Below the pieces are notes generated by a model. The model did no database searches. It saw only the letters and a program-made list of their open reading frames with translations, and was not told where the DNA came from. From Candidatus Poribacteria bacterium (lineage in GTDB: Bacteria; Poribacteria; WGA-4E; WGA-3G), in NCBI GenBank assembly GCA_965214095.1, contig OZ243938.1:2336001-2400000 (forward strand): a stretch of 64,000 nucleotides of DNA, in the 5' to 3' direction. Made by a program: the position numbers and the translations under genes. Shown here in pieces: positions 7,976 through 63,503 of the stretch (positions are counted from its first letter, which is position 1; each line of letters begins with the position of its first letter).

Positions 7976-8135
7976 TATAGTAAAAACCATAGTTACTTAC
8001 ACACTACGGTAGGTTCGGTTTCCTAACCGAACCGGATCTGCCGAGAAAACCTTTATGAACGCCATTGGCACGAATACGGTTCGGTTAGGAAACCGAACCT
8101 ACCGGGAGTGTGCACGTATTTTACATTTCACTATA
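7976..8135. mobile_element. MITE-A (TA-flanked, ends TAGTAAAAA.../...TTTCACTA) carrying an inverted pair of GTAG-REPs
   Basis: GTAGGTTCGGTTTCCTAACCGAACC at 8009 with its inverse ending at 8102; same ends at 19660, 37331 and 63366. Confidence 0.8.
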
Positions 8136-8146
8136 AAAATAAGAAA

Positions 8147-8611
8147 ATGATCAACAAAGCTTTATACGCACTAAAACTAAAAAAACGACCCGATGTGGAT
8201 AGAGGTAAAGTCCTCAAAGCATTCCCATTGAGAAATCAGTTGATAACGTGGGAAGTTGACGATAAAGACGAGGCATCACTTGTCATTCCACAGAAAGAAA
8301 AATTCTGGATCAAATTGACAAGTAAAATCTTTATGCTGCCTGATAAACGTGTCGTCGTGCTGGACAGCATCGGTTCTTATGTTTGGCAGCTGTGTGATGG
8401 CAAACACACAATCTCACAGATAATCAACGCACTCCAGAAAAAACATCGGTTAACTCGAAAAGAAGCAGAGACCTCACTTTTTACCTTTATAAAGATGCTC
8501 GGAAAACGGAATTTTATACAATTTGCTATCCCAAAAGAAGATAATCAGAATGAAACCGCAACGCAAAAACCTGTGCAACAGAAACGTTTCGGGTTTTTAT
8601 CTAAAGGATAG
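8147..8611 (+). CDS. PqqD-family / RiPP-recognition-element-like protein
   Basis: 'LDSIGSYVWQLCDGKHTISQIINAL...FIKMLGKRNFI' PqqD-type pattern; the ORF-track GTG start lies inside the MITE. Confidence 0.8.
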   Translation: MINKALYALKLKKRPDVDRGKVLKAFPLRNQLITWEVDDKDEASLVIPQKEKFWIKLTSKIFMLPDKRVVVLDSIGSYVWQLCDGKHTISQIINALQKKHRLTRKEAETSLFTFIKMLGKRNFIQFAIPKEDNQNETATQKPVQQKRFGFLSKG

Positions 8612-8624
8612 ACGGTACTTCTTA

Positions 8625-8759
8625 TACCACTTCTAAATAAAAACTGCTCATTATCAAAACAGACGCTCGTAGTCGCGCAATTCATTGCGCCTCTTACATT
8701 CAGCAAATTGAGGATAAATCTACAAATTCCCAATGACACCTTATCTATTAGAAATGGTA
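8625..8759. mobile_element. MITE-C (135 bp, TIR TACCAYTTCTAA, 3-bp TTA duplication) carrying hairpin GTAGTCGCGCAATTCATTGCGC
   Basis: Near-identical copy at 38532-38666; partial copy at ~34975-35073. Confidence 0.8.
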
Positions 8760-8838
8760 TTATTTCGAACACGGACAATTAATCTTGACTGAATGCTGAT
8801 GACTGAATGCTGATAGCCAATACATAGGAGAAACAGAT

Positions 8839-14447: not shown

Positions 14448-14557
14448 ATAGTTTCTTACTGACAGCAGGGATATTTAATTTTAGGATGTTCTGATGTATT
14501 TCATGACAAACGTTAATTGACTTGAGATACGATTTTGCTTGTGAGTGCGACATGGTA

Positions 14558-14664
14558 GTAGGCACGCTCCGCGTGCCGTCCAAACGTGAAAGGGTTACGG
14601 TACACCAAATCAACGGTATGAATCATGGCGCATGCTTCTTAGGCATTCCCCGGAGTGTGCCTAC
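14558..14664. repeat. Inverted GTAG-REP pair (GTAGGCACGCTCCGCGTGCC family)
   Basis: Same hairpin is found inside MITE-F; degenerate inverse 'CGGAGTGTGCCTAC' ends at 14664. Confidence 0.6.
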
Positions 14665-14761
14665 AGCCATTCATCACTACGACCCAGACATAACTCTTAG
14701 TAAAACTCATCAACTGGCAAATTATAAAACAAAATAACCCTGTATTGACCTCAGGGTTATT

Positions 14762-14864
14762 TATGGTGAAGCATAAAATTATATCTACTCTTTCTATCAA
14801 CGGTAGGCGAGGTTTCCTGACCTCACCTCAGTAATTTGTAGAATCAATTCAATAATTTACCATA
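14762..14864. mobile_element. Diverged MITE-E copy (103 bp, TA-flanked) with GTAGGCGAGGTTTCCTGACCTCACC hairpin
   Basis: Same length and architecture as 17435-17537 and 40743-40845. Confidence 0.6.
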
Positions 14865-15008
14865 GTTTTAGGGTTTTTGTTGAGTCTTTTTCACAAATGC
14901 TAAATTCCCCAAGCCGGTAGGTGCGGTTTCCTAACCGCACCGGATTTGTGCTAGACACCTTTCATAATAGGTCTTCTCACAGGTTTCGGTGCGGTTAGGA
15001 AACCGCAC

Positions 15009-16496
15009 CATAAGCGTCAATTTAGTGATTTTTTGCTGCATTTTCAAGGTGTTCTAATGTTGTGTCTCTATTAGCACGTCTCTCAATGTAGCACCCATTT
15101 TGGAAAGCGTGTTTTATTTCATCAAAAGTTTGCCGAAAAGACATTATAGACTTGCGGAAACCTATTGCAAGTGTGCGTGCGAAGGTGCTAATAAGTTCTG
15201 CTGTTTTTGTTAGACTATGTTTTAGACATCGCCAACCGACCCTTAACATGATCCAGTGCCGCATAATTGCGACGATGAGTTTTGCATATAACTCACATAA
15301 GATTCTATATGGCTTGTCGCTACGGGAGGTATCAACTTTTCCAATGCTTTTGAAGCACTTGAACATCAACTCAACCTGCCATCGGATGCGTGCGACAGCA
15401 CAAATCTGTTCAGCAGTCAGATGGTCTACTTTTATATTAGTAATGTAGATATTCCATCTTGCGAGCTGAAGTCGTTTGGGTGAAGGTTTCGTATACTTCC
15501 GCTTTGCACGATGTTTTATCTCCTTAATACGCTGTTGGGTTTCTGTTTCTGAAAGTCTTTGAACAACTAATCGTGCTTTGAGACGCTTGTTTTTACCTAT
15601 AAAGATTTGTTTGTCCTTGAAGTTATTAGAACCCTTCTTGAGCCATTTTAGCAAGCAAAAAGGGGCACCTGTTTCATCATAGAGAAAACACTGGACTTTG
15701 TAGCGTGATATCCAAAAGACGTTTGCATCGGAAAGTCTTTTGAAGGTATCAAGTGAATAATAGCCGAGGTCTGCGAGGCGCAAACTGCCGGCGGGTAGCA
15801 TGTCAATCTGCTTTTCAATAGCACTATCAGCGGTGATACCATTGGTCAGTTCAAAGTGTTCAAAAGTGCCTGTGGCACTATCAAAACGCAGGTGGAGTTT
15901 CACGGCAGCTGTGTTCGGTTTATTCTTTTTGCTTCCACCTTCCCAAGTTTCGTGGAGCACATCAGGGAGTGTAATCCAAGAACTATCTTGTAAATAGACA
16001 CCAGTGAACTTTTCAAGGAGCGGAAGCGTTTGCGGGTCGGCAGAAATAACCTTGGACGCAGTAGCATCAAGGATAACTTTCAGGGTCTCTGCTGCTTCAG
16101 ATGTAAATCGTTGTTCAATGGCTTGTCGTGAGATTGAAATCCCCAGCACACCAGCGGTTTGCGCAAGTTGTGTATAGGTGGCATCTGGGTTTTCTAACCA
16201 AGTCCAAATGAGTATTTGAGCAAAACGACTACCGTTGAGTTTACAACTTCTTTTGACAAAACCTGTATTGAGAGCTGCATCATTGGCTATAGTTGTAAGA
16301 ATATGTTGCATTTCTTTGGGAACTTGTGATAATGTATTCATTAGGAAACACCTCTTTGTAGACCATAATAAATCTATATCTACATTATATATGAGGTGTT
16401 TTCATTTTTACAGAAGTTTTATTTCATAATTTATACTTCCTCTGATTAAAAGTTGACACTTATCGGTCTTGGTGCATCCTTAAATTGACGCCTATG
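15009..16496 (-). mobile_element. IS4-family insertion sequence, copy 1 (1488 bp), inserted in a REP hairpin with a 20-bp target duplication
   Basis: TIRs CATAAGCGTCAATTTA / TAAATTGACGCCTATG; GTGCGGTTAGGAAACCGCAC at both 14989-15008 and 16497-16516. Confidence 0.93.
15022..16341 (-). CDS. IS4-family DDE transposase
   Basis: 'LQDSS', 'LADLGYY', 'RWQVELMFK'; the stop codon lies in the TIR. Confidence 0.93.
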   Translation of the reverse strand: MNTLSQVPKEMQHILTTIANDAALNTGFVKRSCKLNGSRFAQILIWTWLENPDATYTQLAQTAGVLGISISRQAIEQRFTSEAAETLKVILDATASKVISADPQTLPLLEKFTGVYLQDSSWITLPDVLHETWEGGSKKNKPNTAAVKLHLRFDSATGTFEHFELTNGITADSAIEKQIDMLPAGSLRLADLGYYSLDTFKRLSDANVFWISRYKVQCFLYDETGAPFCLLKWLKKGSNNFKDKQIFIGKNKRLKARLVVQRLSETETQQRIKEIKHRAKRKYTKPSPKRLQLARWNIYITNIKVDHLTAEQICAVARIRWQVELMFKCFKSIGKVDTSRSDKPYRILCELYAKLIVAIMRHWIMLRVGWRCLKHSLTKTAELISTFARTLAIGFRKSIMSFRQTFDEIKHAFQNGCYIERRANRDTTLEHLENAAKNH

Positions 16497-16656
16497 GTGC
16501 GGTTAGGAAACCGCACCTACCGGTGAGAGTTGAGCCATAATGTTTGATGAAACCATCGTAAAAGCCTATCTTAGACATAACCGATATCATTAAAAACTTT
16601 TATCCTGATAATTATATAATTCTATAAATCCTTGGGCAGACTACAGTAGCACAATA

Positions 16657-17434: not shown

Positions 17435-17537
17435 TATAGTGAATTATAAATATAAGTTGACACTTTCACCCTATGGTAGGCGAGGTTTCCTAACCTCGCC
17501 GATGCAGAGTGTTCAAGTAATTTCAAAATCTACTATA
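17435..17537. mobile_element. MITE-E (103 bp including flanking TA) with GTAGGCGAGGTTTCCTAACCTCGCC hairpin
   Basis: Near-identical copy at 40743-40845. Confidence 0.8.
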
Positions 17538-19505: not shown

Positions 19506-19850
19506 GTAATAATCTAATCGTATATGCCCTATTTGACAGTTATAGGTTAGTGCTTAGTCAACATTTTATTGTAGTTCGCGATTCGGAGATCGTTCCTACC
19601 GACTGACCATTTATTGTCCGAGGGAACTCCGATTCCCGATTACTCTTATGTCCATCAGTTATAGTAAAAACCATAATTATTTACACACTACGGTAGGTTC
19701 GGTTTCCTAACCGAACCATGGGCGTCAATTTAGTGTAAATTAGGCGTTTTCCCCAGGACGGTAGGTTCGGTTTCCTAACCGAACTGGATCCTATGCGAGA
19801 ACCTCTATGAAGGTATTTGGCACAAAGCCGGTTCGGTTAGGAAACCGAAC

Positions 19851-21338
19851 CATAGGCGTCAATTTAGTGATTTTTTGCTGCATTTTCAAGGTGTTCTAAT
19901 GTTGTGTCTCTATTAGCACGTCTCTCAATGTAGCACCCATTTTGGAAAGCGTGTTTTATTTCATCAAAAGTTTGCCGAAAAGACATTATAGACTTGCGGA
20001 AACCTATTGCAAGTGTGCGTGCGAAGGTGCTAATAAGTTCTGCTGTTTTTGTTAGACTATGTTTTAGACATCGCCAACCGACCCTTAACATGATCCAGTG
20101 CCGCATAATTGCGACGATGAGTTTTGCATATAACTCACATAAGATTCTATATGGCTTGTCGCTACGGGAGGTATCAACTTTTCCAATGCTTTTGAAGCAC
20201 TTGAACATCAACTCAACCTGCCATCGGATGCGTGCGACAGCACAAATCTGTTCAGCAGTCAGATGGTCTACTTTTATATTAGTAATGTAGATATTCCATC
20301 TTGCGAGCTGAAGTCGTTTGGGTGAAGGTTTCGTATACTTCCGCTTTGCACGATGTTTTATCTCCTTAATACGCTGTTGGGTTTCTGTTTCTGAAAGTCT
20401 TTGAACAACTAATCGTGCTTTGAGACGCTTGTTTTTACCTATAAAGATTTGTTTGTCCTTGAAGTTATTAGAACCCTTCTTGAGCCATTTTAGCAAACAA
20501 AAAGGGTCACCTGTTTCATCATAGAGAAAACACTGGACTTTGTAGCGTGATATCCAAAAGACGTTTGCATCGGAAAGTCTTTTGAAGGTATCAAGTGAAT
20601 AATAGCCGAGGTCTGCGAGGCGCAAACTGCCGGCGGGTAGCATGTCAATCTGCTTTTCAATAGCACTATCAGCGGTGATACCATTGGTCAGTTCAAAGTG
20701 TTCAAAAGTGCCTGTGGCACTATCAAAACGCAGGTGGAGTTTCACGGCAGCTGTGTTCGGTTTATTCTTTTTGCTTCCACCTTCCCAAGTTTCGTGGAGC
20801 ACATCAGGGAGTGTAATCCAAGAACTATCTTGTAAATAGACACCAGTGAACTTTTCAAGGAGCGGAAGCGTTTGCGGGTCGGCAGAAATAACCTTGGACG
20901 CAGTAGCATCAAGGATAACTTTCAGGGTCTCTGCTGCTTCAGATGTAAATCGTTGTTCAATGGCTTGTCGTGAGATTGAAATCCCCAGCACACCAGCGGT
21001 TTGCGCAAGTTGTGTATAGGTGGCATCTGGGTTTTCTAACCAAGTCCAAATGAGTATTTGAGCAAAACGACTACCGTTGAGTTTACAACTTCTTTTGACA
21101 AAACCTGTATTGAGAGCTGCATCATTGGCTATAGTTGTAAGAATATGTTGCATTTCTTTGGGAACTTGTGATAATGTATTCATTAGGAAACACCTCTTTG
21201 TAGACCATAATAAATCTATATCTACATTATATATGAGGTGTTTTCATTTTTACAGAAGTTTTATTTCATAATTTATACTTCCTCTGATTAAAAGTTGACA
21301 CTTATCGGTCTTGGTGCATCCTTAAATTGACGCCTATG
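19851..21338 (-). mobile_element. IS4-family insertion sequence, copy 2 (1488 bp), 20-bp TSD
   Basis: TIRs CATAGGCGTCAATTTA / TAAATTGACGCCTATG; GTTCGGTTAGGAAACCGAAC at 19831-19850 and 21339-21358. Confidence 0.93.
19864..21183 (-). CDS. IS4-family DDE transposase (one residue differs from copy 1)
   Basis: ETGDPF vs ETGAPF; otherwise the same translation. Confidence 0.93.
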   Translation of the reverse strand: MNTLSQVPKEMQHILTTIANDAALNTGFVKRSCKLNGSRFAQILIWTWLENPDATYTQLAQTAGVLGISISRQAIEQRFTSEAAETLKVILDATASKVISADPQTLPLLEKFTGVYLQDSSWITLPDVLHETWEGGSKKNKPNTAAVKLHLRFDSATGTFEHFELTNGITADSAIEKQIDMLPAGSLRLADLGYYSLDTFKRLSDANVFWISRYKVQCFLYDETGDPFCLLKWLKKGSNNFKDKQIFIGKNKRLKARLVVQRLSETETQQRIKEIKHRAKRKYTKPSPKRLQLARWNIYITNIKVDHLTAEQICAVARIRWQVELMFKCFKSIGKVDTSRSDKPYRILCELYAKLIVAIMRHWIMLRVGWRCLKHSLTKTAELISTFARTLAIGFRKSIMSFRQTFDEIKHAFQNGCYIERRANRDTTLEHLENAAKNH

Positions 21339-21530
21339 GTTCGGTTAGGAAACCGAACCTACCGGTACTTGGAAGGACGCTAAATTGACGCCTATGGTTC
21401 GATTTCCTAACCGAACCGGTGTTTGTTCAGTCTCATAGATGCGGTTAGGAAACCGCATCTACCGAGGAGTACACGTGTTTTTACATTTCACCATAACGCT
21501 TGACTAAGCACTATCGCGTAAGTCTTGTTC

Positions 21531-23519: not shown

Positions 23520-23583
23520 TTTTTTCCTCTGATATATTTGTAAAAAAAAAATGGCACAAAACATAAAATATGGAGAAAGGGAA

Positions 23584-23713
23584 TACCTGTATGAAGATTA
23601 AATTTATTAAACGGGTAATTCTCATTTTCTCAAACCCGGTAGGTGCGGTTTCCTAACCGCATCGGATATCTCAAGGAAATTACCCAATTTATTTCTTAAT
23701 CTTCATTAAGGTA
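23584..23713. mobile_element. MITE-G (TIR TACC..ATGAAGATTAA) with a GTAGGTGCGGTTTCCTAACCGCA hairpin
   Basis: Terminal inverted repeats; left half recurs at ~57315-57372. Confidence 0.6.
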
Positions 23714-23888
23714 TTTTCAACCAATTATAGTTTAGCACCAATTCTTATAGGTTTGTTTAATTGTGTATTGTGTCACAGTGTGTTGTTAGGTTTAGTATGT
23801 TGTTATATTTATGGTAGATTATTGAATTAATTGGACGTTTTGGATATGTAGAAGTGAACTCCGATTCACGATTATCACTGAATTAAGT

Positions 23889-24078
23889 GAGGAGTGTGCA
23901 TAAAGAAAAGCAATCTCAAATATGGTCTTAAAAGTAGTAGGCACGCTCCGCGTGCCGTCCACAAAATCAAAGCATCTCAATAGATTATACTGCCACAAAT
24001 GTGACAATTACATATAAAGAAATACTTGATGAGAGACGCAGCCAATGTTGGCACATAATATATTTATGCACACCCCTC
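23889..24078. mobile_element. MITE-F (190 bp, TIR GAGGRGTGTGCATAAA, 8-bp TSD AATTAAGT) with GTAGGCACGCTCCGCGTGCC hairpin
   Basis: TSD at 23881-23888 and 24079-24086; second copy at 25684-25873. Confidence 0.85.
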
Positions 24079-25683: not shown

Positions 25684-25873
25684 GAGGAGTGTGCATAAAG
25701 AAAAGCAATCTCAAATATGGTCTTAAAAGTAGTAGGCACGCTCCGCGTGCCGTCCACAAAATCAAAACGTCTCAATAGATTATACTGCTACGAAGGGAAC
25801 AATTACATATAAAGAAATACTTGATGAGAGACGCAGCCAATGATGGCACATAATATATTTATGCACACCTCTC
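25684..25873. mobile_element. MITE-F copy 2
   Basis: Same 190-bp element; flanks AAATAAAT / AGATAAAT. Confidence 0.85.
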
Positions 25874-33616: not shown

Positions 33617-33625
33617 CAGACACTC

Positions 33626-33774
33626 CATAAACGTCAATTTAGCATCCTTCCAAGTACCGGTAGGTTCGGTTTCCTAACCGAACCAGCTTTGTGCCAAATA
33701 CCTTCATAGAGGTTCTCGCACAGGTTCCGTGCGGTTAGGAAACCGCACCTACCGGCCTGGGGAAAACGCCTATG
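33626..33774. mobile_element. MITE-B, IS-free copy in reverse orientation (one TIR partly deleted) with a degenerate 20-bp TSD
   Basis: CATAAACGTCAATTTAG...ACGCCTATG; flanks 33606-33625 and 33775-33794 match at 17/20. Confidence 0.8.
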
Positions 33775-34049
33775 GTGAGCTTTGACATACACTCCCGCAG
33801 GATTCATTTCCCGACAATTTTGGTGATGAAATGTTAACTTAACGTAACAATTTAAACCAAATGTGCGTTGTATAAAATTAAATACTTGAAAAAAAAAGTG
33901 AATTATGTTAACATTATAATAGGTTGTGTAGTACATAAACTTGAAGAGTGACTAACATAAAACGACTTTTTACTATAAAGTCTCAATAATAGATACGTAA
34001 CTCTTCTTCAATTATTACTTTAGAATTCTATAGATAAGGAGCATTAATA

Positions 34050-34789: not shown

Positions 34790-34907
34790 CAAATCTCAGT
34801 AGGTGTGGTTTCCTAACCAATTCAGAATACCAGAGGTGTATTCTGACATAAACATCAATTAAGTGAATTTCTTTTATCTGAATCTCGGATTTGCACGGAT
34901 GACTCTT

Positions 34908-37330: not shown

Positions 37331-37465
37331 TGTAGTAAAAATCATAATTATTTACACACGACGGTAGGTTCGGTTTCCTAACCGAACCGGTGTATGTTCA
37401 GTTACATAGATACGGTTAGGAAACCGCATCTACCGGGAATGTGCACATATTTTGATTTCACTATA
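37331..37465. mobile_element. MITE-A, uninterrupted copy; followed by a degenerate MITE-C-like REP pair (37511-37577)
   Basis: Matches 63366-63503 (reverse) and the outer shell at 19660-21495. Confidence 0.78.
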
Positions 37466-37630
37466 ATATTATTTCTAAATGATAATTTGCCATTACCAAG
37501 ACACGCGTTTGTAGTCGTGCAATTCATTGCACCTCTTTTACTACTGAATGTCCGAAGCGCATGAATCGTGCGACTACGAACCTTCTATTTCTTGTCTGTA
37601 GTGATAGAGGTGGTAAATTTGAGAATATCT

Positions 37631-40742: not shown

Positions 40743-40845
40743 TATAGTGAATTATAAATATAAGTTGACACTTTCGACCCACGGTAGGCGAGGTTTCCTA
40801 ACCTCGCCGATGCAGAGGGTTCAAGTAATTTCAAAATCTACTATA
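40743..40845. mobile_element. MITE-E copy
   Basis: Near-identical to 17435-17537. Confidence 0.8.
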
Positions 40846-46176: not shown

Positions 46177-46288
46177 TACCATTTCTAATAGAAAACGCCG
46201 CATTTGTGTAGCACAAACTGCCAGCTTGTGCAGTCGTTCAAGACATTCTTAACAAATGTTAATGGGATAAACATTTATAGAAATGGTA
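46177..46288. mobile_element. MITE-D (112 bp, same TIR type as MITE-C, TAA duplication) with GTAGCACAAACTGCCAGYTTGTGC hairpin
   Basis: Second copy at 62478-62589. Confidence 0.82.
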
Positions 46289-50013: not shown

Positions 50014-50864
50014 GTTATCTATTTATTTATTAGATATATGTTATATATAATAACATATATTTAGTTAATAGTCAAACATATTTGGGCTAAAGCAAAGAAA
50101 AGTCCTCATATCCCAAGTCTAAAGACTTGGGCTTCAAGGACTATGAGAGGTGAAGCCAATCTTGCGCATCGGGATGACTTGAAAACTCACCACACGAAAG
50201 CGTATCACACTCCCCAACCTTATTATTATCAAGGTAAACGTCAATATGTATGTTTGGACGTTGACCTTGTCCATCTTTCCATTCTACATTTAGTGTTATG
50301 GGAATTGGTGCTTTCATCGGCGTAACTTCATAGTTTTCCCAATCCAAAAACACCTCGCCATCAGACCTTCTGTAACCGTTATATCCTAACAATCCCTGAA
50401 CATGATCAAGCGCATCCGAAAGATATGCATGTTCAAAATGAAAGAATCGATATCGATCATTTTGTGAAAAAGCAAAGATACGAGATACATTACATGTCTT
50501 GAAGTATTCCTCAACCTTTTCAAGTACAGCTTGGCCAGCGTTTCTCTCACCACGTTCATAACCCAAGAACCGAATAAAACCGACATCCTCTTCCTCATTT
50601 TCTGCCTTTAGACTCAGAACGGTGTGAACATAGGCTTTAATTGTGTCGTTAGACCTCGCTATGAATACTCTTTCAACGTTATGTTCTTCTCCACCTCTAC
50701 GATATTCACCAGTGACAACACTGTTCATAGCAAGTGCAAATTCATCCTCCTTGACAGGATAACAGTGCGGTACATCAGATGTCAGTTCATTATAGAATTC
50801 CGTCAAGGAGGATAGCAAATCAGGTGTATATTCCAAAATTTCCATCTATTATTTCAATCCTCTC

Positions 50865-53090: not shown

Positions 53091-53148
53091 ATTATCCCTT
53101 TCCTTCTATTATAGTCCTCAAATCTGGAAAATTTTAGATGAATTTGAC

Positions 53149-55227
53149 CTAATTACCCATTTCAGAATCTGTTACATCCCACAACAGAATTGTGCCATCG
53201 AGACTACCACTTGCAAGTGTCTTGCCATCAGGACTAAATGCAATTGAACTAATCCCATCTGAATGTCCAGTAAATGTTTTTAAGTGCTTTCCCTCTTCGG
53301 TTGACCAGAGACGAACAGTTTTGTCATCACTTCCGGATGCAATGGTATTTCCATCATTGGAAAAGCGTACTCCTTGAATAATACCTCCATCACGGTGTGA
53401 AAAACCCAAATGCCCAGAATAGGTATTGATAATGTCTCCGTTGTTGACATCCCGTAATTCTAAAGTTGAATTATAAGTATCAGATGTAACAAACATGTTG
53501 CCATTGGGCGAAAAACATTGAACTGAATGAACTGAAATCCCTCGTCCATAATATATCTCTCTAAGGAGTTGGCCAGAGTCAACGTTAGATAGAGACAAGA
53601 AACTATCGCCAATTCCGCCATCATCAACTTCTTCATGATACATATCAATTATAAGATCCCCATCAGGTGAAAGCAGATAGCCATTGATAGTTTTGAGGTG
53701 ATTACCAGTTTTAGCATCCCATAGATGCACTGTATTGTTATCACAATGACCAACAACTTTTTGTCCATTTGTCGTAAAGCAAACACTTCTAACAGAAGTT
53801 TTATGTCCTATAAGAGTTTTTTTGAGGTTGCCATTACTTGTATCCCATAGTCGTATAGTTTCATCTGAACTGCCGCTAGCAATAGTTTGTCCATTAGGTG
53901 AGAAACATACACTAAAGATTTCATCGGTATGTCCAGTAAGAGACTTCATAAGTTGACCTGTACTTGCATTCCACAGACGGACTTTGTTGTCCGAACTTCC
54001 ACTTGCAATTGTATTGCCATCTGGTGAAAATGAAACGGTTCTAACACCTTCCGTATAACCATCAAGTGTTTTGAGTAGTTCTCCTGAAAGCGCATCCCAG
54101 AGTCGCACCGTCCTATCCTCCCCCTTGCTCAGAAGTGTAATTCCATCTGGTGAAAAGAGGACAGAATCTACACTTCCCTCATGTCCAGAGAGTTTTACAA
54201 GTTCTGATCCTGTATTAGTAGACCATAGACATATCGTGCCATCAGCACCACCGGCTGCGATAATTATCCCATTTGGAGAAAAGCAGATGCTATACACACT
54301 GCCACCTGCATCCCTAATAAGAGTGTTAAGTTTATTTCCTGTGGTCACTTCCCATAGGTACACCTCTCTACTTGATATGTCTCCTGTAGCAATTATTTCT
54401 CCATCTGGTGAAAATCGGACGGTGGTTAATGAATTAATATCCTGATGGTCAAGAGTATTTAGGAGTTGTCCGGTCTTAGAATTCCATAAACGCACCGTAA
54501 AATCCTGACCACCTGTAGCAATTATTTTTCCATCTGGTGAAAACTGGACGGTGTTAACACTATCTTCATGTGCTGTGAAAGTTTTTACGAGTTGTCCAGT
54601 AACGACATTCCAAAGACTCACGTCCAATGAGCCTAATTTCCAGGTAGCTATACTTTTTCCATCTGGTGAAAAGCATTTGTTATAGAAAGAGAAAGCATTA
54701 TTTGATTCTGCAAGTGTGTTTAGTAGTTTACCTGTACTGACATCCCACAAATTTATTGTCTTGTTTGATCTGCCAGAAGGTGTTCCACTTGATGTAGCAA
54801 CTATTTCTCCATCTGGCGAAAATAACGCTCTATAGTGTCCTTTTCCATCGCGTTCAAGTTTTCTTGAGAGTTTTCCTGTGGAAGCATTCCATAACAACAC
54901 AGTTTCATCTGAAACTTCAGTAGCGATAGTTTTACCATTGGGTGAAATAGATACGTTTTTTATTCCATTTACCCGACTTTTATGGTCATAGAGTTGGTAT
55001 AACCTTTCACCAGTAATAGAGTCGTATATCCAAGTCCCGATTGAAGTTGCGATTGCAAACCGAGTGCCATCAGGAAAATATGCGATTTCACCTAATGTGC
55101 CTTGACCGATGCGGAGTTTCGCACCTTCAGGTAAATTCGCAATTGAAGATTTCTGCGCATATACATTCATTGAGAATAACGTTAAAAGTAAGCAGAAGCA
55201 TAAGATAGATCGGTTTATTATTTGCAT
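53149..55227 (-). CDS. Secreted WD40-repeat protein
   Basis: Same architecture as the neighbour; AGGAGG RBS. Confidence 0.92.
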   Translation of the reverse strand: MQIINRSILCFCLLLTLFSMNVYAQKSSIANLPEGAKLRIGQGTLGEIAYFPDGTRFAIATSIGTWIYDSITGERLYQLYDHKSRVNGIKNVSISPNGKTIATEVSDETVLLWNASTGKLSRKLERDGKGHYRALFSPDGEIVATSSGTPSGRSNKTINLWDVSTGKLLNTLAESNNAFSFYNKCFSPDGKSIATWKLGSLDVSLWNVVTGQLVKTFTAHEDSVNTVQFSPDGKIIATGGQDFTVRLWNSKTGQLLNTLDHQDINSLTTVRFSPDGEIIATGDISSREVYLWEVTTGNKLNTLIRDAGGSVYSICFSPNGIIIAAGGADGTICLWSTNTGSELVKLSGHEGSVDSVLFSPDGITLLSKGEDRTVRLWDALSGELLKTLDGYTEGVRTVSFSPDGNTIASGSSDNKVRLWNASTGQLMKSLTGHTDEIFSVCFSPNGQTIASGSSDETIRLWDTSNGNLKKTLIGHKTSVRSVCFTTNGQKVVGHCDNNTVHLWDAKTGNHLKTINGYLLSPDGDLIIDMYHEEVDDGGIGDSFLSLSNVDSGQLLREIYYGRGISVHSVQCFSPNGNMFVTSDTYNSTLELRDVNNGDIINTYSGHLGFSHRDGGIIQGVRFSNDGNTIASGSDDKTVRLWSTEEGKHLKTFTGHSDGISSIAFSPDGKTLASGSLDGTILLWDVTDSEMGN

Positions 55228-55241
55228 AGCCGCGTGTCCTC

Positions 55242-57172
55242 CTATTTCTTTTTAGGAACATCCCACAACAGAATAGTACCATCAAGACTACCACTTGCAA
55301 GTGTCTTCCCATCAGGACTAAATGCTAAAGTTTCAACAGACCATTTATGTCCTGAAAAGGTATGCTGTTTCTTCCCAGTTTCTATATCCCATATATGTAT
55401 CATACTGCTTCTCCCTACTCCAGCAATAGTCTTTCCATCTGGAGAATATGCAAGATTCTCGATCATACTACCCATCATATCAAGGTGAAATTCCTGTAGA
55501 TCCCCGCATTTAATCTATCTTCAATATTAAATGGTAGTTCAAGTGTCTGAATACATTCTCCGCTGACTGTATGCCACAACTTAATTTGTGAACCTGATGT
55601 AGCAAGCAATACACCATTTGGTGAATAGGCAATAGACCACCCATTTCCTGTTTTGGGAAGTGTGAGTTTTTCCACTCCGGTTTTAACATCCCACAAACGC
55701 ACCATGCCGTTAAATCCACCACTTGCTAACGTCAGATTATCAGGAGAAAATGCAACCGAAAATGCCCGTCCCTTTTCTTCAACCAATGTATGTATTACTT
55801 CACCGTTTTCAGCATTCCATATACGCATTGTATGGTCATTTCCCGCACTTGCTAACATACTACCGTCTGAGGAAAACGCTATTGAACGGATTTCATCTGT
55901 ATGCCCTTTAAGGGTTATTATGTGCTCAGCAGTAGTATAATTCCATAAATTGATAATCCCTTTCCAATCCGCGCCAGCGACTGTGCGATTATCAGGAGAA
56001 AATGCTAAAGAAGCTATAGTTGCTGACACACTTTGTTGATGTCCTTTAATGGTTTCTTTATGTTTTCTGGTTTCTACATCCCACAATGAAATCCTTGATC
56101 CAAATGTGCTTGCTAAAGTTGTTCCATCTGTAGAGAACGCAAGTGCATACACATTTGTTGTATGACCTTTGATTGTCAAAATGTTTTTACCACTATCAAG
56201 GTTCCAAAAATATATTCTACCACCCCAGTCCATACCAACAAGAGTTTTCTTATCTGGAGAATATAGGAGTTCAGAAACGCCACCCTCTGGAATGTGAATT
56301 GTTTCTTCAACTATTCCTGTGGAAACATTCAATAACTCAATCTCGCTTTTGTGATAGACACTATACGCTAAAATGTTACCATCTGGACTATACGCAACAG
56401 TTCCATAACTATCTTCACGTTTAGTAAGAATCTTTTTCTGTTTTCCAGTGTTAGTATCCCACAAGCGAATTGTACCGTCACCACTTACACTTACAAGCGT
56501 TTTCCCATCTGGTGAAAATGCAAGCGTAAGAATCCAATCGGTATGTCCAACGAATTCATGCTTAATTTGTCCATCGTCAACATTCCATGACAGAACTGTG
56601 TTGTTTAACGCGGAACCCGCCACTGTTTTTCCATTTGGTGAAAACTCTACTGATGTAATTTGTTGTGAAAATCCTGAGAGAGTATGTTTACGTTCTCCAG
56701 TACTTACATCCCACAGTTTGATATTACCATCTTGATCTCCACTGACGAGTGTAAGACCATCTGGAGAAAACGCTAATGCACGAACATCCCTTTTATTTCC
56801 TGAAAGTACTATGTGCTCACCTGTCAGTGTATCCCATAGTCGAATTGATTTGTCATTTCCTAATCCACCGCTACTTGCAATTGTTATCCCATCTGGTGAG
56901 TATGCAACAGAACGCACGGCAGTTTTGTGTCCAGTAAAAAGCGTAATTGCATCACCGGTGTGTGTATCATATAACCAAATCCCAATCATACTTGCCACTG
57001 CTAGCTGTTTTCCACTTGGAGAAATCGCAATATCCTCTATAGAACCTTTTCCAAGTCGCGCTTTTGCTCCCTCAGGTAAACCCAACGGAGTAACATCTTG
57101 GGCAGAGGTGTTCAGCAGAAATAACGCACAAAGCAACAATATGGTTATTATGTATTGATGTATTGTTTTCAT
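55242..57172 (-). pseudogene. Secreted WD40-repeat protein with a frameshift near 55502-55505
   Basis: One extra G in GCGGGGATC joins ORFs 55475-57172 and 55242-55478 (...NAGDLQEFHLDMMGS...), collinear with paralogue 57531-59501. Confidence 0.8.
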
Positions 57173-57314
57173 TTTACGCACTCCCTTGACGAATAGGTTA
57201 TACCATTTTAATAAAATAACGAGTTGTGCTAAATAACTAATTGTTAAATAGCGTGTCACATTAGCGGGTGGATTTGACCGGACTTCTTTTTCTTTGTACG
57301 ATCTTTAGTCCCGT

Positions 57315-57488
57315 ATGAAGATTAATTGGGTAATTCTCATTTTCTCAAACCCGGTAGGCGCGGTTTCCTAAACCAATGCAGAATACCACACGCGTATTCT
57401 GGCATAGGCAACAATTTGGTGGTTCGGTTAGGAAACCGTACCTACCGGCCTGGGAAAACGCCTAATGGACACTAAATTGATGCCTATG
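57315..57488. mobile_element. Chimeric remnant: MITE-G left half plus short MITE-B (57403-57488)
   Basis: TATGAAGATTAA...CCCGGTAGG; CATAGGCAACAATTTGG...CTAAATTGATGCCTATG. Confidence 0.6.
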
Positions 57489-57530
57489 CCTTGTATTTCT
57501 CAAATCTGGACCGTAACAGTTCACATTGAC

Positions 57531-59501
57531 CTAATTTTCCGTTTCAGTATTTGTGACATCCCATAACAGAATTGTTCCGTTACTACTTCCACTTGCAAGT
57601 GTCTTGCCATCTGGTGAAAACGCTATTTGTCCAATTCGGTAAAAAACTGATTTATGTCCTGTATAGGTATGTATTGCTTTTTGAGTTTCAATGTCCCACA
57701 ATCGAATTAACCCATTTTCACGTAATACTGCGAGTGTATTTCCATCTGGAGAAAAGACTAACTTCTGTGCTTGATCCATCATATTTTCGTGAATTTCTAT
57801 CATTTTTTCTGGATCTCCCGCTGCTAATTGCATTTTCTCTCCCATGTTTTTCATCGGGTTGTGATCCAGGGTTAGGATATTTTCACCAGTCTTGGCATGC
57901 CACAATTGAATACTCCTCCCTGTTGTTGCAAGCAATATTCCATTCGGAGAATACGCAATTGAGAAACCGTTTCCAGTCTTTGGTATAGTCAATTTCTGTT
58001 CTCCGGTGGTAACATCCCATAAACGCACAACTCCTTTAGAATAACTACTTGCTAACGTCAGGTTATCAGGAGAAAATGCGACTGCATATACCTTTTCCGC
58101 TTCCTCTACAAGTGTATGTATCTGTTCACCGTTCGCTGTATTCCAAATATGGATTGTGTGGTCATTTCCGGCAACTGCTAACATACCGTCTGAGGAAAAT
58201 GCAATTGATTGGATCCACTCAGTAGGTACTTCCAGTTGATGTTTCTGTTCTCCAGTAATATAATCCAATATACTGATAACACCTTTCCCATGTGTACTTG
58301 CTATCGTCCTAAAATCAGGAGAAAATGCCAAAGAACCTATGGAAGCGAATGCATTCTGATTAACTTTAACTTTAAGAGTTTCCTTATGTGATAGGGTATC
58401 TACATCCCACAGATCAATCCCATATCCAGATGTACTCGCTAATGTTTTTCCATCTGAAGAATATGCAATGGTACGGACAGATGACTGATGTCCATCTATA
58501 CTCAATTTGTTTTTCTTTGTTTTAATGTCCCAAAAATATATCCTACCACCCCAACCCATACTAACAAGAGTATTCTTTTCTGGTGAATATAGAACTCTTG
58601 AAACACCACCTTTTGGTATTTGAATTGTTTGTTCAACTTTTCCTGTGGATACATTCAAGAACTCAATTTTCCTACCCAGTTGAATACCACATGCAAGGAG
58701 GCTGTCATCTGGACTAAAAGTCACCGTTTGAATTTCATTTCTTTGATTTGTAAGAATTATTTTCTGTTGTCCAGTGACAGTATCCCACAAGCGAATTGAA
58801 CCGTCTTGACTTCCACTTGCAAGAGTTGTACCATCTGGTGAAAACGCAAGAGTCAGCACCCAATCGGTATGTCCGTTATATTGGTGCTTAATCTCTCCAT
58901 CGTCAACATTCCATGACAGAATAGTACTGTCTAACGCGCCAGCTGCCACAGTTTTTCCATCTGGTGAAAACACTACTGACATAACTTGTGATGTATACCC
59001 AACAAGATTCTGTTTACGTTCTCCAGTGTTCATATCCCACAATATAACATTACCATCGTTATCTCCACTTACAAGTGTGTTGCCATCTGGAGAAAAGTCT
59101 AATGTCCGAAAATCTCCACTACCCCCTGAATATAGAACTCTGTTTTTACCTGTCTCTGTATCCCAAAGTCGTAATGATTTGACACGACCTAATCCACTAC
59201 CACTTGCAACAGTTTTTCCATCTGGTGAGAAGGCAACGGCACGTACGGTGGTCTTGTGCTCAGTAAAGAGTGCAATTTCATCACCAGTTTGCGTATCATA
59301 TAGCCAGACCCCAATTGCACTTGCGACTACCAACTGTTTTCCATCTGGAGAAATCGATATATCATGAATAGAGCTTTTCCCAATTCGCGCTTTGGCTCCT
59401 TCTGGCAAACCAAACTGTGTCGCATCTTTAGCAGATACGTTCAGCAAAAACAACGCACAAAGTAAGAATGTGGTTATTATGTATTGATGTATTGTTTTCA
59501 T
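57531..59501 (-). CDS. Secreted WD40-repeat protein
   Basis: Paralogue of 55242-57172 (MKTIHQYIIT start). Confidence 0.92.
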   Translation of the reverse strand: MKTIHQYIITTFLLCALFLLNVSAKDATQFGLPEGAKARIGKSSIHDISISPDGKQLVVASAIGVWLYDTQTGDEIALFTEHKTTVRAVAFSPDGKTVASGSGLGRVKSLRLWDTETGKNRVLYSGGSGDFRTLDFSPDGNTLVSGDNDGNVILWDMNTGERKQNLVGYTSQVMSVVFSPDGKTVAAGALDSTILSWNVDDGEIKHQYNGHTDWVLTLAFSPDGTTLASGSQDGSIRLWDTVTGQQKIILTNQRNEIQTVTFSPDDSLLACGIQLGRKIEFLNVSTGKVEQTIQIPKGGVSRVLYSPEKNTLVSMGWGGRIYFWDIKTKKNKLSIDGHQSSVRTIAYSSDGKTLASTSGYGIDLWDVDTLSHKETLKVKVNQNAFASIGSLAFSPDFRTIASTHGKGVISILDYITGEQKHQLEVPTEWIQSIAFSSDGMLAVAGNDHTIHIWNTANGEQIHTLVEEAEKVYAVAFSPDNLTLASSYSKGVVRLWDVTTGEQKLTIPKTGNGFSIAYSPNGILLATTGRSIQLWHAKTGENILTLDHNPMKNMGEKMQLAAGDPEKMIEIHENMMDQAQKLVFSPDGNTLAVLRENGLIRLWDIETQKAIHTYTGHKSVFYRIGQIAFSPDGKTLASGSSNGTILLWDVTNTETEN

Positions 59502-62417: not shown

Positions 62418-62477
62418 AATACTTTCTCCTTTTTATGTTTTAGAAGGTGATGGATTCACCTTATCAAACTCTTGTTA

Positions 62478-62589
62478 TACCATTTCTAATAGAAAACGCC
62501 GCATTTTTGTAGCATAAACTGCCAGTTTGTGCAGTCCTTCAAGACATTCTTAACAAATGTTAATGGGATAAACATTTATAGAAATGGTA
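62478..62589. mobile_element. MITE-D copy duplicating the stop codon of the PhyH gene
   Basis: TTA at 62475-62477 and 62590-62592. Confidence 0.82.
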
Positions 62590-63357
62590 TTATATCTTAT
62601 TATAATGGATTCGCCGACTGCCATCAAAAGAGATGCGTGGCCAATCGCGTTCCCAATTCTCTGATTGATACGGGATGTAGTGACATGCCAATGCATGTCT
62701 ACGCGTACCGGGTTTTAGTACAGGAGCACCACCGTGTATCAGTTTTCCGTTAAACAGAACAACATCTCCTTGGTTCACAAGCACTTGAACTTTATCCGCA
62801 ACGTTCTCCTCAAATACTTGTTCTACCCTTGGAAAATATCGGTTGGACTGTTGCTGTTCGTAGGTTTCATCCGGTTGTAATATCATAGGCACATCTTGTT
62901 TTGTGATTAACCTACCTTTGTGCGAACCGGGTTGAACAACTAAAGGTCCATTGTCTTTATCAACATCTACCATAGCTATCCATGCTGACATACAATCAGG
63001 CAGATAGTATTGGTCTTGATGTAGTGGATGTTCCGAACCTTCATAAAAATGCATCGTTTGAATTGCCTCTGGTTCATCCCCGAAACAGTCTTTCAGTGGT
63101 TGGTGCAATCGTGCATCAATGAGAAATTCCAAAACATACGGATCATATAGATGTTGATTGAATGTGCGATAACCATACTTGTCTTGTTGGAAAAATCCTG
63201 TGAGTTCCTTACGACCGTTGTGAAGATCTTCCAGATGTTCAACAAAACCTTGGCATTCCTCCTTTGTGAAGACACTTTGAAGCACAAGATATCCGTATGT
63301 ATCATAATATGATTTCTGTTGATTGGTTAAACCTACCTGTTCTGATGCCATATTCAT
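62590..63357 (-). CDS. PhyH-family dioxygenase
   Basis: 'LHQDQYY', 'NGPLVVQPGSH', 'GDVVLFNGKLIHG', 'RHALACHY'. Confidence 0.9.
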   Translation of the reverse strand: MNMASEQVGLTNQQKSYYDTYGYLVLQSVFTKEECQGFVEHLEDLHNGRKELTGFFQQDKYGYRTFNQHLYDPYVLEFLIDARLHQPLKDCFGDEPEAIQTMHFYEGSEHPLHQDQYYLPDCMSAWIAMVDVDKDNGPLVVQPGSHKGRLITKQDVPMILQPDETYEQQQSNRYFPRVEQVFEENVADKVQVLVNQGDVVLFNGKLIHGGAPVLKPGTRRHALACHYIPYQSENWERDWPRISFDGSRRIHYNKI

Positions 63358-63365
63358 CTATCTAT

Positions 63366-63503
63366 TATAGTGAAATGTAAAAATACGTGCACACTCCCCG
63401 GTAGATGCGGTTTCCTAACCGCATCTATGAGACTGAACAAACACCGGTTCGGTTAGGAAACCGAACCTACCGTAGTGTGTAAATAATTATGGTTTTTACT
63501 ATA
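63366..63503. mobile_element. MITE-A, uninterrupted copy in reverse orientation
   Basis: Empty allele of the nest at 19660-21495. Confidence 0.82.

Follow-up and report, generated by a model that had tools for sequence, protein, structure and literature searches.

REPs, REPINs and RAYTs have been described from several bacterial groups, in which the repeat unit is a palindrome of 20–40 bp with an unpaired terminal GTAG, inverted dimers and covarying stems, and several families occur per genome (PMC3733652, PMC3116915, PMC3479197). The mechanisms by which REPs disseminate are poorly understood (PMC8266576). In Coxiella burnetii, a GTAG REP lies inside QMITE2, a 150–190-bp MITE with TIRs and variable direct repeats, and this internal REP is the target of IS1111; in shorter copies of QMITE2, little besides the REP is present (Wachter et al. 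2018, PMC5896051). In Pseudomonas, degenerate GTAG-1 REPs are joined to unrelated stem-loops in composite TIRs, and TIRYT/TIRtrons are likewise described; such structures reach hundreds of copies (PMC3733652). REPs are also known as insertion sites for IS elements with transposases that are highly selective for REP hairpins (Tobes and Pareja 2006, PMC1525189), and one such element, ISPpu9, belongs to the IS110 family (PMC12288879).

Here we describe a 64-kb stretch of a Candidatus Poribacteria genome (hereafter the window) that resembles QMITE2 in architecture, and in architecture only, in that TIR/direct-repeat shells enclose a GTAG REP that serves as an IS target (the MITE-A2 nest in the window and the locus L038 outside it). 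An earlier, sequence-only reading of the window did not know the system as one already described, which was an overstatement given the Coxiella precedent as set out in the cited passages. QMITE2 is one family with one REP type and is targeted by IS1111 of the IS110 family, whereas in the window the shells have five types of ends, the REPs are of at least four types, and the targeting element is an IS4-family DDE element that duplicates a 22-bp hairpin; unlike what those passages describe for QMITE2, the target is carried by a MITE that derives from the very IS inserting into it (PMC5896051). The window is a multi-family version of what was described for that one element. What is new is that the same REP/REPIN core occurs in unrelated shells, that the number of REPs within a single shell type ranges from one to three, and that a near-identical pair of IS4 elements and their MITE-B derivative insert in one register into the type-1 hairpin. 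Elhai et al. are said to have reported in 2008 that very small structured repeats in Nostoc are often embedded in MITEs and in copies of themselves; these repeats are reportedly 21–27 nt long and were proposed to move via RNA.

The window contains ≈35 GTAG-plus-hairpin units of four sequence types. The type-1 hairpin has the form (C)GGTAGG-NNCGG-TTTCCTAA-CCGNN-CC, and types 2 (GTAGTCGCGCAATTCATTGCGCC, in MITE-C), 3 (GTAGCACAAACTGCCAGCTTGTGC, in MITE-D), and 4 (GTAGGCACGCTCCGCGTGCC, in MITE-F) were read directly from the sequence. Searching with the type-1 loop motif alone, with the flanks unconstrained, gave 22 sites in the window. In an ungapped alignment of these sites, GTAG lies directly 5' in 20 of the 22, and the two that do not have it are duplication copies adjoining IS4 ends, where the tag is missing because the hairpin is the insertion target. 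The same alignment gives a 9-bp stem and a 4-nt loop with 97.5% of 198 cells paired, and both sides are altered in four of the nine stem pairs; none of 500 shuffles reached the observed pairing score or the observed covariation score. Across the window, a perfect stem of at least 6 bp follows GTAG at 37 sites, compared with 3.96 ± 2.1 in first-order Markov simulations, among which the highest count in 100 was 11. GTAG also ranks first of all 256 tetramers that precede hairpins (37, against 29 for the next and a median of 8), a count in which repeat copies are not independent of one another; independence holds at the level of hairpin types, of which the window has four and L038 adds two. A further 46 GTAG-plus-hairpins are present in 34 Poribacteria loci, against 7.2 ± 2.5 simulated, and these have many stem variants with loops in common.

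Inverted dimers occur in A1–A4, B1, B2, U, C4, and X (Table 1), and the window units show three of the features by which Di Nocera 2013 recognizes REPs, namely a palindromic stem-loop of 20–40 bp, a terminal GTAG, and frequent inverted dimers; for a fourth, extragenic occurrence at high copy number, the window offers its ≈35 units in 64 kb. These hairpins fit the published description of REP-class palindromes, with a GTAG tag, a stem-loop, and often an inverted pair, as the sequence-only reading had held; the window has no match in Rfam at gathering thresholds. They share with classical REPs the palindrome, GTAG, dimers, and covarying stems, and at one locus outside the window (L074) also the flanking of a RAYT gene. 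The classical REPs and REPINs of the cited passages are free-standing and have no TIR/TSD shell, whereas 26 of the 35 window units lie in complete shells, four lie in partial ones, and the window contains no RAYT; the phylum of the window is absent from those that the same passages list as surveyed for GTAG REPs (PMC3733652, PMC3116915, PMC3479197). A search of the Poribacteria literature for such repeats returned none among the matches listed, which hints that they may be unpublished.

Manual classification of the window placed those 26 units within complete TIR/TSD-bounded shells and left five with no shell, and among 17 complete shell copies in the window none is without a REP. All of these counts are drawn from a single stretch of 64 kb and from loci chosen for containing the hairpin. 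The shells are short, non-coding, TIR-bounded MITEs with two to four copies per family, and their enclosure of GTAG-hairpin cargo in several families bears out the central claim of the sequence-only reading. That reading counted six or more unrelated end types; we find five, because TAGTRAA termini are common to A and E and a single TIR type to C and D. The five are TAGTRAA flanked by TA (A and E), IS4 TIRs (B), TACCAYTTCTAA with a TWA duplication (C and D), GAGGAGTGTGCAT with an 8-bp duplication (F), and the palindromic G. The sharing of TIRs by C and D despite their different hairpins was read correctly from the start, and G was rightly recognized as a hairpin-bearing shell, but its TIR had been drawn too short and extends outwards to AATACCTKTAWTGAAGATTAA. 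In the window, these elements are strictly intergenic and dense, occupying 18 of the 28 intergenic regions of at least 40 bp.

Table 1 Coordinates and structure of the repeat elements in the window
Feature	Position	Strand	Structure
MITE-A1	7976..8135 (element 7978-8133)		TA both sides; two inverted type-1 REPs, 8008-8033 (+) and 8078-8103 (-), with a long B-type REPIN spacer between; left arm 96.6% identical to A2 left arm
MITE-C1	8625..8759	+	TIR TACCACTTCTAA / TTAGAAATGGTA; TSD TTA both sides; one type-2 REP from 8669
X	14555..14666		Inverted type-4 REP pair, GTAGGCACGCTCCGCGTGCC ... degenerate GGCATTCCCCGGAGTGTGCCTAC; no TIR shell recognized around it
MITE-E3	14753..14879	+	Degenerate E copy, TA / TGGTGAAGC...TTTACCA / TA; one type-1 REP, loop TTTCCTGA
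REPIN U	14905..15009		GGTAGG-hairpin, 44-nt spacer, hairpin; right hairpin (14988-15009) is the IS4-1 target; remainder (second hairpin copy and TACC) at 16496-16523
IS4-1	15010..16495	-	1,486 bp; transposase ORF 15022-16341 (439 aa); TIR ATAAGCGTCAATTTA / TAAATTGACGCCTAT; flanked by identical 22-bp direct hairpin copies, 14988-15009 and 16496-16517 (TSD 22/22)
MITE-E1	17437..17535	+	TA both sides; one central type-1 REP, CGAGG stem variant
MITE-A2, three-level nest	19662..21493		First A2 hairpin split by MITE-B1
MITE-B1	19718-21395		Within A2; TSD 19696-19717 and 21396-21417
IS4-2	19852-21337		Splits right hairpin of the B1 REPIN; TSD 19830-19851 and 21338-21359
MITE-G1	23582..23716	+	Palindromic; TIR AATACCTGTATGAAGATTAA; one central type-1 REP
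MITE-F1	23889..24078	+	TIR GAGGAGTGTGCATAAA; TSD AATTAAGT both sides; one type-4 REP from 23937
MITE-F2	25684..25873	+	F1 shell, 92% identical; TSD AAATAAAT and AGATAAAT; one type-4 REP from 25732
MITE-B2	33627..33773		REPIN (two type-1 REPs, inverted) between IS4-type ends; 22-bp TSD, 33605-33626 and 33774-33795 (19/22 identical), at a non-REP site that includes the stop codon of ORF 32894-33616
Variant type-1 unit, ATCCTG-rich repeat and C3	34797..35073	+	GTAGGTGTGGTTTCCTAACCAATTCAGAATACC...; C3 is the right half of a C shell, type-2 REP from 34984, right flank TAA
MITE-A3	37333..37463		Left flank TG, right flank TA; inverted pair of type-1 REPs, stems TTCGG and ATGCGG, spacer short
C4	37466..37616	+	Candidate C-family shell; inverted type-2 REP pair 37508-37581; left half alignable to C1 and C2 up to and including the REP, right end weakly defined
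MITE-C2	38532..38666	+	TSD TAA both sides, the left TAA being the stop codon of gene 37692-38531; 96% identical to C1
MITE-E2	40745..40843	+	TA both sides; one type-1 REP; 89.5% identical to E1
MITE-D1	46177..46288	+	TIR TACCATTTCTAA; TSD TAA both sides; one type-3 REP from 46208
Composite	57316..57487		G left end (G2) with half a type-1 REP, an unrelated hairpin, and B3, a short IS4-ended element with one type-1 REP; boundaries read by eye
MITE-D2	62478..62589	+	TSD TTA both sides; one type-3 REP; 96.5% identical to D1
MITE-A4	63368..63501		Opposite orientation to A3; TA both sides; inverted pair of type-1 REPs

The target duplications differ from copy to copy within the C, D, and F pairs (Table 1), as do the 22-mers that flank B elements, and therefore the shells are true DDE-type elements, as had been proposed from the sequence alone. 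For A and E the flank is an invariant TA, replaced by TG on the left of A3, and is not decisive as a duplication. The members of each pair have the same REP type at the same position despite their different duplications, and each transposition of a MITE copies its embedded REP. The REP content of a shell varies independently of the shell itself. A REPIN core of ≈99 bp is common to shell A1, to shells B1 and B2, and to context U. Conversely, shell A holds one hairpin in the outside loci L038 and L013 and two in A1–A4, shell C holds one REP in C1 and C2 and an inverted pair in C4, and between IS4 ends there may be one REP (B3), a pair (B1 and B2), or three different GTAG hairpins (L038). The Pseudomonas composite TIRs are similar in that REP units are fused with other sequence into larger inverted-repeat structures, but they flank tyrosine-transposase genes, and the cited passages describe no DDE-type TSDs for them (PMC3733652).

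The B shells lead to the element that inserts into the hairpins. Autonomous IS elements with matching TIRs, named in the sequence-only reading as a check on its proposal, exist for B in the form of IS4-1 and IS4-2; for A/E, C/D, F, and G, none was found in the window and the sampled loci. The IS4-1 transposase matches Pfam DDE_Tnp_1 (PF01609, 1.9e-22) and the NCBIfam IS4-family model NF033592 (195.4 bits against a cutoff of 115), and IS4-2 agrees with IS4-1 at 1,483 of 1,486 positions (99.8% identity). The Pfam match and the gene content ruled out a reading of the 439-aa ORFs as IS200/IS605 tnpB genes with end hairpins. The ends of the B elements clearly derive from those of the IS4 element, and these MITE derivatives carry REPs whereas the full element has no internal REP. 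IS4-1, IS4-2, and B1 in the window, together with the IS4-ended MITE of L038, are inserted in one register in the type-1 hairpin, and the duplicated segment is the hairpin itself (22 bp in the window insertions; 22 bp, or 23 on the left, in L038). The hairpin might be mistaken for part of the IS4 TIR, but its loop points the same way at either end of the element, which shows that the flanking hairpins arose by duplication and do not belong to a longer TIR. Insertion by this active IS4-family element and by its derivative MITE-B is directed exactly at the type-1 hairpin, which is duplicated over its full 22 bp. This use of the hairpin as an insertion target had been overlooked in the sequence-only reading.

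The length of the duplication sets the element apart from its family. It is a hallmark of IS4-family elements that they duplicate roughly 10 bp of target, about one turn of the helix (PMC2266710), and this value is not matched here: the duplication is 22 bp, about twice that length, in all four window events and 22/23 bp in L038. The copies of the four IS4-type duplications in the window agree at 22/22, 22/22, 21/22, and 19/22 positions, and the value of 20 bp first given for MITE-B has been corrected to 22 bp. Other REP-targeting IS elements are largely members of the IS110 or IS3 families. The window element is a member of the IS4 family by NF033592, whereas the REP-targeting ISPpu9 is an IS110-family element (PMC12288879). 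Insertion into the hairpin accounts for the nests, in which A contains B and B contains an IS, and for the extra hairpin copies.

We found no RAYT gene in the 64-kb window. When the 2,144 ORFs of the window and the outside loci were searched by phmmer with E. coli RayT as the query, there was one match, in L074, and a two-sequence profile search of the same ORFs again gave L074 as the single match. The E. coli RayT search missed an IS200-type tnpA in the window that Pfam detected. This is the only HUH gene of the window, and it is a canonical IS200/IS605 tnpA with end hairpins of its own that are unrelated to the REPs; of these end hairpins, only the element's own copy was found. We considered the gene as a RAYT candidate and rejected it, as it scores 22 bits on the RAYT model NF047646 against a cutoff of 80. 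The L074 protein scores 102.7 bits on this model (REP-associated tyrosine transposase). L074 belongs to another phylum, and its RAYT gene is flanked on both sides by REP pairs, including GTAGGGCGGGGTTTCCTAACCCCGCC, that carry the GGTTTCCTAACC loop of the window. At L106, from another MAG, the right flank is shared with L074 (92% over 412 nt) and a 23-nt spacer stands at the place of the gene. REP-flanked RAYT genes, the other check named in the sequence-only reading, are therefore represented in this loop class by L074 in another phylum and by none in the window. Of the two tiers of mobility proposed in that reading, the riding of REPs on MITEs holds, in that transposition of the shell copies the REP, but the RAYT tier has no counterpart in the 64 kb.

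The outside loci extend the pattern. They come from a genome pattern scan with five N in the pattern, where the window REP has four, and the window's own register and genome lie outside this sample; the scan gave at least 118 distinct matches, 33 of which have no more than three of five complementary stem positions and are probably chance matches. Four loci in other Poribacteria MAGs contain a 183-bp MITE (386 bp in L011) with the TIR AGGGCAATCGCATGT, a TSD of 10–12 bp, and a same-loop REP at position 77. In L038 and L013, a single GGTAGG-hairpin-CCTACC forms the center of an A/E-type shell that is perfectly palindromic, and L038 additionally has a type-2 REP inside its IS4-ended MITE and two hairpin types beyond the four of the window. 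A 12-nt loop core is conserved across phyla.

The explanation that we favor, and to which we give about an even chance, is that REP-class hairpins residing almost entirely in DDE-type MITEs are copied by MITE transposition, targeted by IS4, and exchanged between shells as cores through nesting. An IS4-family element or MITE-B would insert into a type-1 hairpin and duplicate its 22 bp, and type-1 REP cores would then pass between shells through such hairpin-targeted nesting, followed by deletion or recombination between the direct hairpin copies. The structure of A1 is exactly that expected if two such deletions had occurred in an A2-like nest; this origin is a reconstruction, and the A1 REPIN is only about 82% identical to the B1 REPIN. 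Much of the type-1 exchange between shells can be explained in this way with no RAYT involved, and the route covers type 1 only because no REP of type 2, 3, or 4 was seen as an IS target. The GTAG tag and the conserved loops may be a legacy of recognition by a RAYT-type HUH enzyme, or may reflect ongoing recognition by a RAYT elsewhere in the genome. As MITE-B brings with it the target that it prefers, REP-bearing MITEs may also multiply safe landing sites for further insertions. The presence of a REP in all shell families is not accounted for by this favored explanation. More tentatively, REPs may in this lineage be obligate passengers and preferred landing pads of DDE transposons, spreading and diversifying free of RAYTs in a self-reinforcing transposon network that carries its own target. 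The IS4-family transposase would then recognize the REP hairpin, its REPIN-bearing MITE derivative would seed targets wherever it lands, and recombination from hairpin to hairpin would move REP cores between unrelated shells.

It is unlikely, in our estimate, that an active two-tier system operates, with at least one RAYT encoded outside the window placing REPs or REPINs into MITEs at present and DDE transposases amplifying them afterwards. The persistence of GTAG across the four window hairpin types and the two in L038 would suit such a system, given that GTAG binding by RAYT is base-specific and required for cleavage (PMC3479197), as would the same-loop REPs around the L074 RAYT, the occurrence of type 2 both in C shells and in the IS4-ended MITE of L038, and that of type 4 in both F and X. 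Yet the 64 kb contain no RAYT, neither a target motif that recurs nor a clean boundary of insertion was identified where REPs lie in different shells, each REP type would presumably require a RAYT of its own, and the type-1 exchange is explicable in other terms. We regard as improbable a reverse order of events, in which long palindromic REPINs were recruited as MITEs because a motif resembling a transposase-binding site on one arm of a palindrome automatically recurs inverted on the other. The REP is indeed the center of a palindrome spanning the whole element in A, in G, and in B where it bears a REPIN (z of the DNA fold, -6.5 for A4, -6.4 for G1, and -6.3 for B2; E1 gives -3.8), the perfect palindromes of L038 and L013 surround a single hairpin, and the nearly bare small QMITE2 copies (PMC5896051) fit the same order. 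However, C and F are palindromic only in their short TIRs (z of -1.3 and -1.6), D folds somewhat better (-3.6), the REP lies off-center in all three, and the B ends come from an IS. An appeal to the host, already raised in the sequence-only reading, that hairpin MITEs are tolerated or favored near genes (for example, through stabilization of mRNA 3' ends or through insulation) with selection and no mechanistic link behind the pattern, seems rather improbable as well. Consistent with it are the dense, strictly intergenic placement, the positions of C2 and B2 exactly at stop codons, and the effect of GTAG REPs on transcript stability in Stenotrophomonas (PMC3184786), but the strand orientation of GTAG relative to genes is inconsistent (antisense for D2 and F1, whereas the genes around D1 and F2 diverge), and a generic need for hairpins would preserve neither the GTAG tag nor the loop core across phyla. 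Strongly disfavored, and very improbable, is the inheritance of each hairpin from the parent IS of its MITE with a coincidental GTAG. All copies within a family do have the same hairpin in the same position, but the same REP types recur in unrelated shells, the full IS4 element has no REP where its derivatives do, and the first rank of GTAG among 256 tetramers speaks against coincidence.

The duplications prove that REPs can be multiplied by ordinary DDE transposition of the MITEs enclosing them, and the insertion of an IS into a REP multiplies it as well, through target-site duplication. Should the same be true across the genome, the abundance of REPs in some phyla would reflect the dynamics of MITEs and not RAYT activity. 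The IS4 element would, on the same condition, provide a DDE transposase that is naturally specific for hairpins and whose duplication spans two helical turns, and such an enzyme would be of interest for target choice and for the geometry of strand transfer.

The GTAG-tagged hairpins (REPs) described in the sequence-only reading hold up. Searching the window (G+C ≈42%) with the loop motif alone, we recover 22 sites of the type 1 hairpin, (C)GGTAGG-NNCGG-TTTCCTAA-CCGNN-CC, and ungapped alignment places GTAG directly 5′ of the hairpin in 20 of them. The 9-bp stem covaries, with pairing in 97.5% of 198 cells and both-sided changes at four of nine pairs, and none of 500 shuffles reaches its pairing or covariation score. 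At 37 sites GTAG precedes a perfect stem of at least 6 bp, as opposed to 3.96 ± 2.1 in simulated sequences (maximum of 11 in 100), and among the 256 tetramers preceding hairpins in the window GTAG ranks first. Further GTAG hairpins are distinguished as type 2 (GTAGTCGCGCAATTCATTGCGCC), type 3 (GTAGCACAAACTGCCAGCTTGTGC), and type 4 (GTAGGCACGCTCCGCGTGCC).

Window self-comparison, sequence reading, and motif searches also bear out MITE families A to G as shells, that is, TIR/TSD-bounded elements around REPs. Because the TSDs of B, C, D, and F vary from copy to copy, these shells are true DDE-type insertions. The earlier claim of at least six families with unrelated ends stands for the families but not for their ends, since termini common to A and E and to C and D leave five distinct end types; MITE-C and MITE-D have little in common beyond those ends. 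Folded as single-stranded DNA, A, G, and B form palindromes over their whole length (z of −6.5, −6.4, and −6.3), E and D fall in between (−3.8 and −3.6), and C and F are not palindromic (−1.3 and −1.6). The F terminus is similar to A-arm sequence beside a REP and also to the 3′ half of an inverted type 4 REP; sequence next to REPs may have given rise to the F ends, or the resemblance may be coincidental.

MITE shells in the window
Family	Copies	Ends	Flanks or TSD
A	4	TAGTRAA...TYYACTA	TA, but TG left of A3
E	3	TAGTRAA...TYYACTA	TA
C	C1, C2, candidate C4, partial C3	TACCAYTTCTAA	TTA or TAA
D	2	TACCAYTTCTAA	TAA or TTA
F	2	GAGGAGTGTGCATAAA	AATTAAGT both sides; other copy AAATAAAT and AGATAAAT
G	1, partial G2	AATACCTKTAWTGAAGATTAA, palindromic	
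B	B1, B2, partial B3	those of IS4-family element	22-mers, different per copy

Coordinates of the features discussed (window positions unless a locus is named)
Feature	Position	Strand
F terminus, GAGGAGTGTGCAT	23889-23901	
A-arm sequence, GGGAGTGTGCAC	8104-8116	
Inverted type 4 REP, 3′ half, GGAGTGTGCCTAC	14652-14664	
REP pair X	14555-14666	
REPIN U, target of IS4-1	14905-15009	
IS4-1	15010-16495	-
Hairpin copies around IS4-1	14988-15009/16496-16517	
IS4-2	19852-21337	
Hairpin copies around IS4-2	19830-19851/21338-21359	
MITE-B1 TSD (21/22)	19696-19717/21396-21417	
Three-level nest	19662-21493	
MITE-B2 TSD (19/22)	33605-33626/33774-33795	
ORF ending at MITE-B2	32894-33616	
Its stop codon	33614-33616	
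MITE-C2, left TAA	38529-38531	
ATCCTG-rich repeat	34905-34951; 63718-63764; L038:2270-2330	
WD40-repeat genes	50865-59501	-
REP-bearing composite	57316-57487	
Sigma factor-DnaN ORF	17772-19505	+
IS200/IS605 element	48335-50140	-
tnpA	49597-50013	-
tnpB	48335-49597	-
IS200/IS605 end hairpin, CCCAAGTCTTTAGACTTGGG	≈50110-50133	
Filled/empty pair at the RAYT gene	L074:146-800; L106 (whole locus)	

Assigned by hand, the REP units of the window number 35, with 24 of type 1 (a mutated duplication copy and a half unit among them), five of type 2, two of type 3, and four of type 4. Shells with both ends recognized hold 26 of the 35 (the right end of C4 being weak) and partial shells another four; the five units without a recognizable shell make up REPIN U, an inverted REP pair, and X, an inverted type 4 pair. 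All 17 complete shell copies in the window contain at least one REP, and REP-bearing elements occur in 18 of the 28 intergenic regions of at least 40 bp. Two insertions lie exactly at gene ends: the left TAA duplication of MITE-C2 is the stop codon of an amidohydrolase gene, and the 22-mer duplicated by MITE-B2 includes the stop codon of an ORF.

Genes in the window encode, among others, WD40, TPR, FG-GAP, and Met-zincin proteins. Most direct-repeat families in the window come from four large tandem WD40-repeat genes, which are separated by a REP-bearing composite. An ATCCTG-rich repeat (…ATCCTGAAAATCCTGGTTCAGACAA…) without a GTAG hairpin of its own adjoins REP-bearing elements in the window and in L038, a locus from another Poribacteria MAG. 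A single ORF encodes regions 2 and 4 of an ECF-type sigma factor together with a full three-domain DnaN sliding clamp; it may be a genuine fusion or may run through two separate genes.

The REPs enclosed change independently of the shell around them. A REPIN core of ≈99 bp, composed of a GGTAGG-hairpin, a 44-nt spacer, and a hairpin-CCTACC, can be aligned among A1, B1, B2, and U, and the sequence outside this core differs. Shell A encloses one hairpin in the loci L038 and L013 and two in A1 to A4, with a short or long spacer; shell C encloses one type 2 REP (C1 and C2) or two in inverted orientation (C4); and the IS4-ended shell encloses one REP (B3), a pair (B1 and B2), or three different tandem GTAG hairpins (L038). 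Type 4 is present both in MITE-F and in the shell-less pair X. The left arm and first hairpin of A1 are 96.6% identical to those of A2, and the A1 interior is B-like; in our reconstruction, an A2-like nest that underwent two deletions, each between direct hairpin copies, would have exactly the structure of A1.

The hairpin is also an insertion target, a role that the sequence-only reading overlooked. Both 439-residue ORFs are IS4-family transposases (PF01609; NF033592 at 195.4 bits), and their elements, IS4-1 and IS4-2, share 1,483 identical positions over 1,486 bp each. Each element lies between identical 22-bp direct copies of a hairpin. Such copies could be taken for an extended IS4 TIR, but the loop has the same direction on both flanks, which rules this out and marks the 22 bp as a duplication. 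The two duplicated targets belong to diverged REPINs with unlike stems, GGTGCGG and GGTTCGG, so the insertions were independent and at the same position. MITE-B1 interrupts MITE-A2 at its first hairpin, again in this register, and IS4-2 splits a hairpin within B1 to form a three-level nest; in L038, an IS4-ended MITE likewise splits the one central hairpin of an A-type shell. Each hairpin-targeted insertion adds one hairpin copy without GTAG on one side, which accounts for the two untagged type 1 sites. At the non-REP site of MITE-B2 the TSD is still 22 bp, and the duplication length is therefore a property of the transposase. This length, about two helical turns, is atypical for the IS4 family, for which the cited portion of the source gives a hallmark TSD of ≈10 bp (PMC2266710).

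A gene for a REP-associated tyrosine transposase (RAYT) is absent from the window: among 2,144 ORFs from the window and the retrieved loci, phmmer with E. coli RayT matched one, in L074 from another MAG, and a two-sequence RAYT profile gave the same single match. The window carries a complete IS200/IS605 element, whose tnpA product (138 residues) reaches 124.5 bits with the IS200 model NF033573 and only 22 bits with the RAYT model (cutoff of 80), and whose tnpB product (420 residues) belongs to the RNA-guided endonuclease family. The end hairpin of this element bears no relation to the GTAG REPs, and a second copy of it was not found in the window. The L074 gene (102.7 bits on the RAYT model) has REP pairs on both sides, including the GGTTTCCTAACC-loop hairpin; in the organism of L074 at least, the loop class is therefore associated with a RAYT. 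Locus L106, from another MAG, has its right flank in common with L074 (92% over 412 nt) and, at the orthologous site, a 23-nt spacer where L074 has the gene; the two form a filled/empty pair that links REPtron and REPIN for this REP class.

We scanned genomes other than the window's own with GTAG-N5-GGTTTCCTAACC, a sister register of the N4 spacing in the window REP. At least 120 stretches were listed, 118 of them distinct, and four or five of five stem positions are complementary in 85 of these 118 listed matches (calculated chance expectation ≈1.6%). Among the matches listed, stems differ from lineage to lineage (GTAGCCACAGG... in Poribacteria, GTAGGGCGGGG... in Coatesbacteria-like MAGs, and GTAGGGGCGGG... 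in a Eubacterium MAG), and Latescibacterota, Anaerolineae, and Ignavibacteriaceae contribute single cases. Four loci of other Poribacteria MAGs each contain a MITE of 183 bp (386 bp in L011) that has TIR AGGGCAATCGCATGT and a TSD of 10 to 12 bp and carries the same-loop REP at position 77, and many more scan matches have a conserved upstream context starting with this TIR. With the searched hairpin excluded, 34 Poribacteria loci (133 kb) contain 46 other GTAG hairpins, compared with 7.2 ± 2.5 simulated, in several classes with conserved loops and variable stems that include relatives of types 2 and 4; because the loci were picked for containing the searched hairpin, the share of shells without one is not readable from them. 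The best matches of the window's short repeats are loci from Poribacteria MAGs (L038, L048, L026, and L051), and the window therefore presumably belongs to a Poribacteria-like genome.

Elhai et al. (2008) reportedly described small repeats nested in Nostoc minitransposons. In the portions of the literature cited here, GTAG-tagged REPs occur in many phyla, with dimers and RAYTs (PMC3733652, PMC3116915), RAYT recognizes GTAG base-specifically (PMC3479197), and REPs serve as IS targets (PMC1525189). The closest precedent for the REP-bearing MITEs of the window is Coxiella QMITE2, described in part of its source as a TIR/DR MITE with an internal GTAG REP targeted by IS1111 (PMC5896051). New here are one architecture across five end types and at least four REP types, the duplication of a whole 22-bp hairpin by an IS4-family element, and a MITE bearing the target of its own transposase. 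The interpretation proposed earlier finds partial support: a RAYT tier in the organism of this RAYT-free window and a selective advantage of the hairpin are inferred, and the evidence shows that the shells copy REPs as passengers and that REP content changes independently of them.
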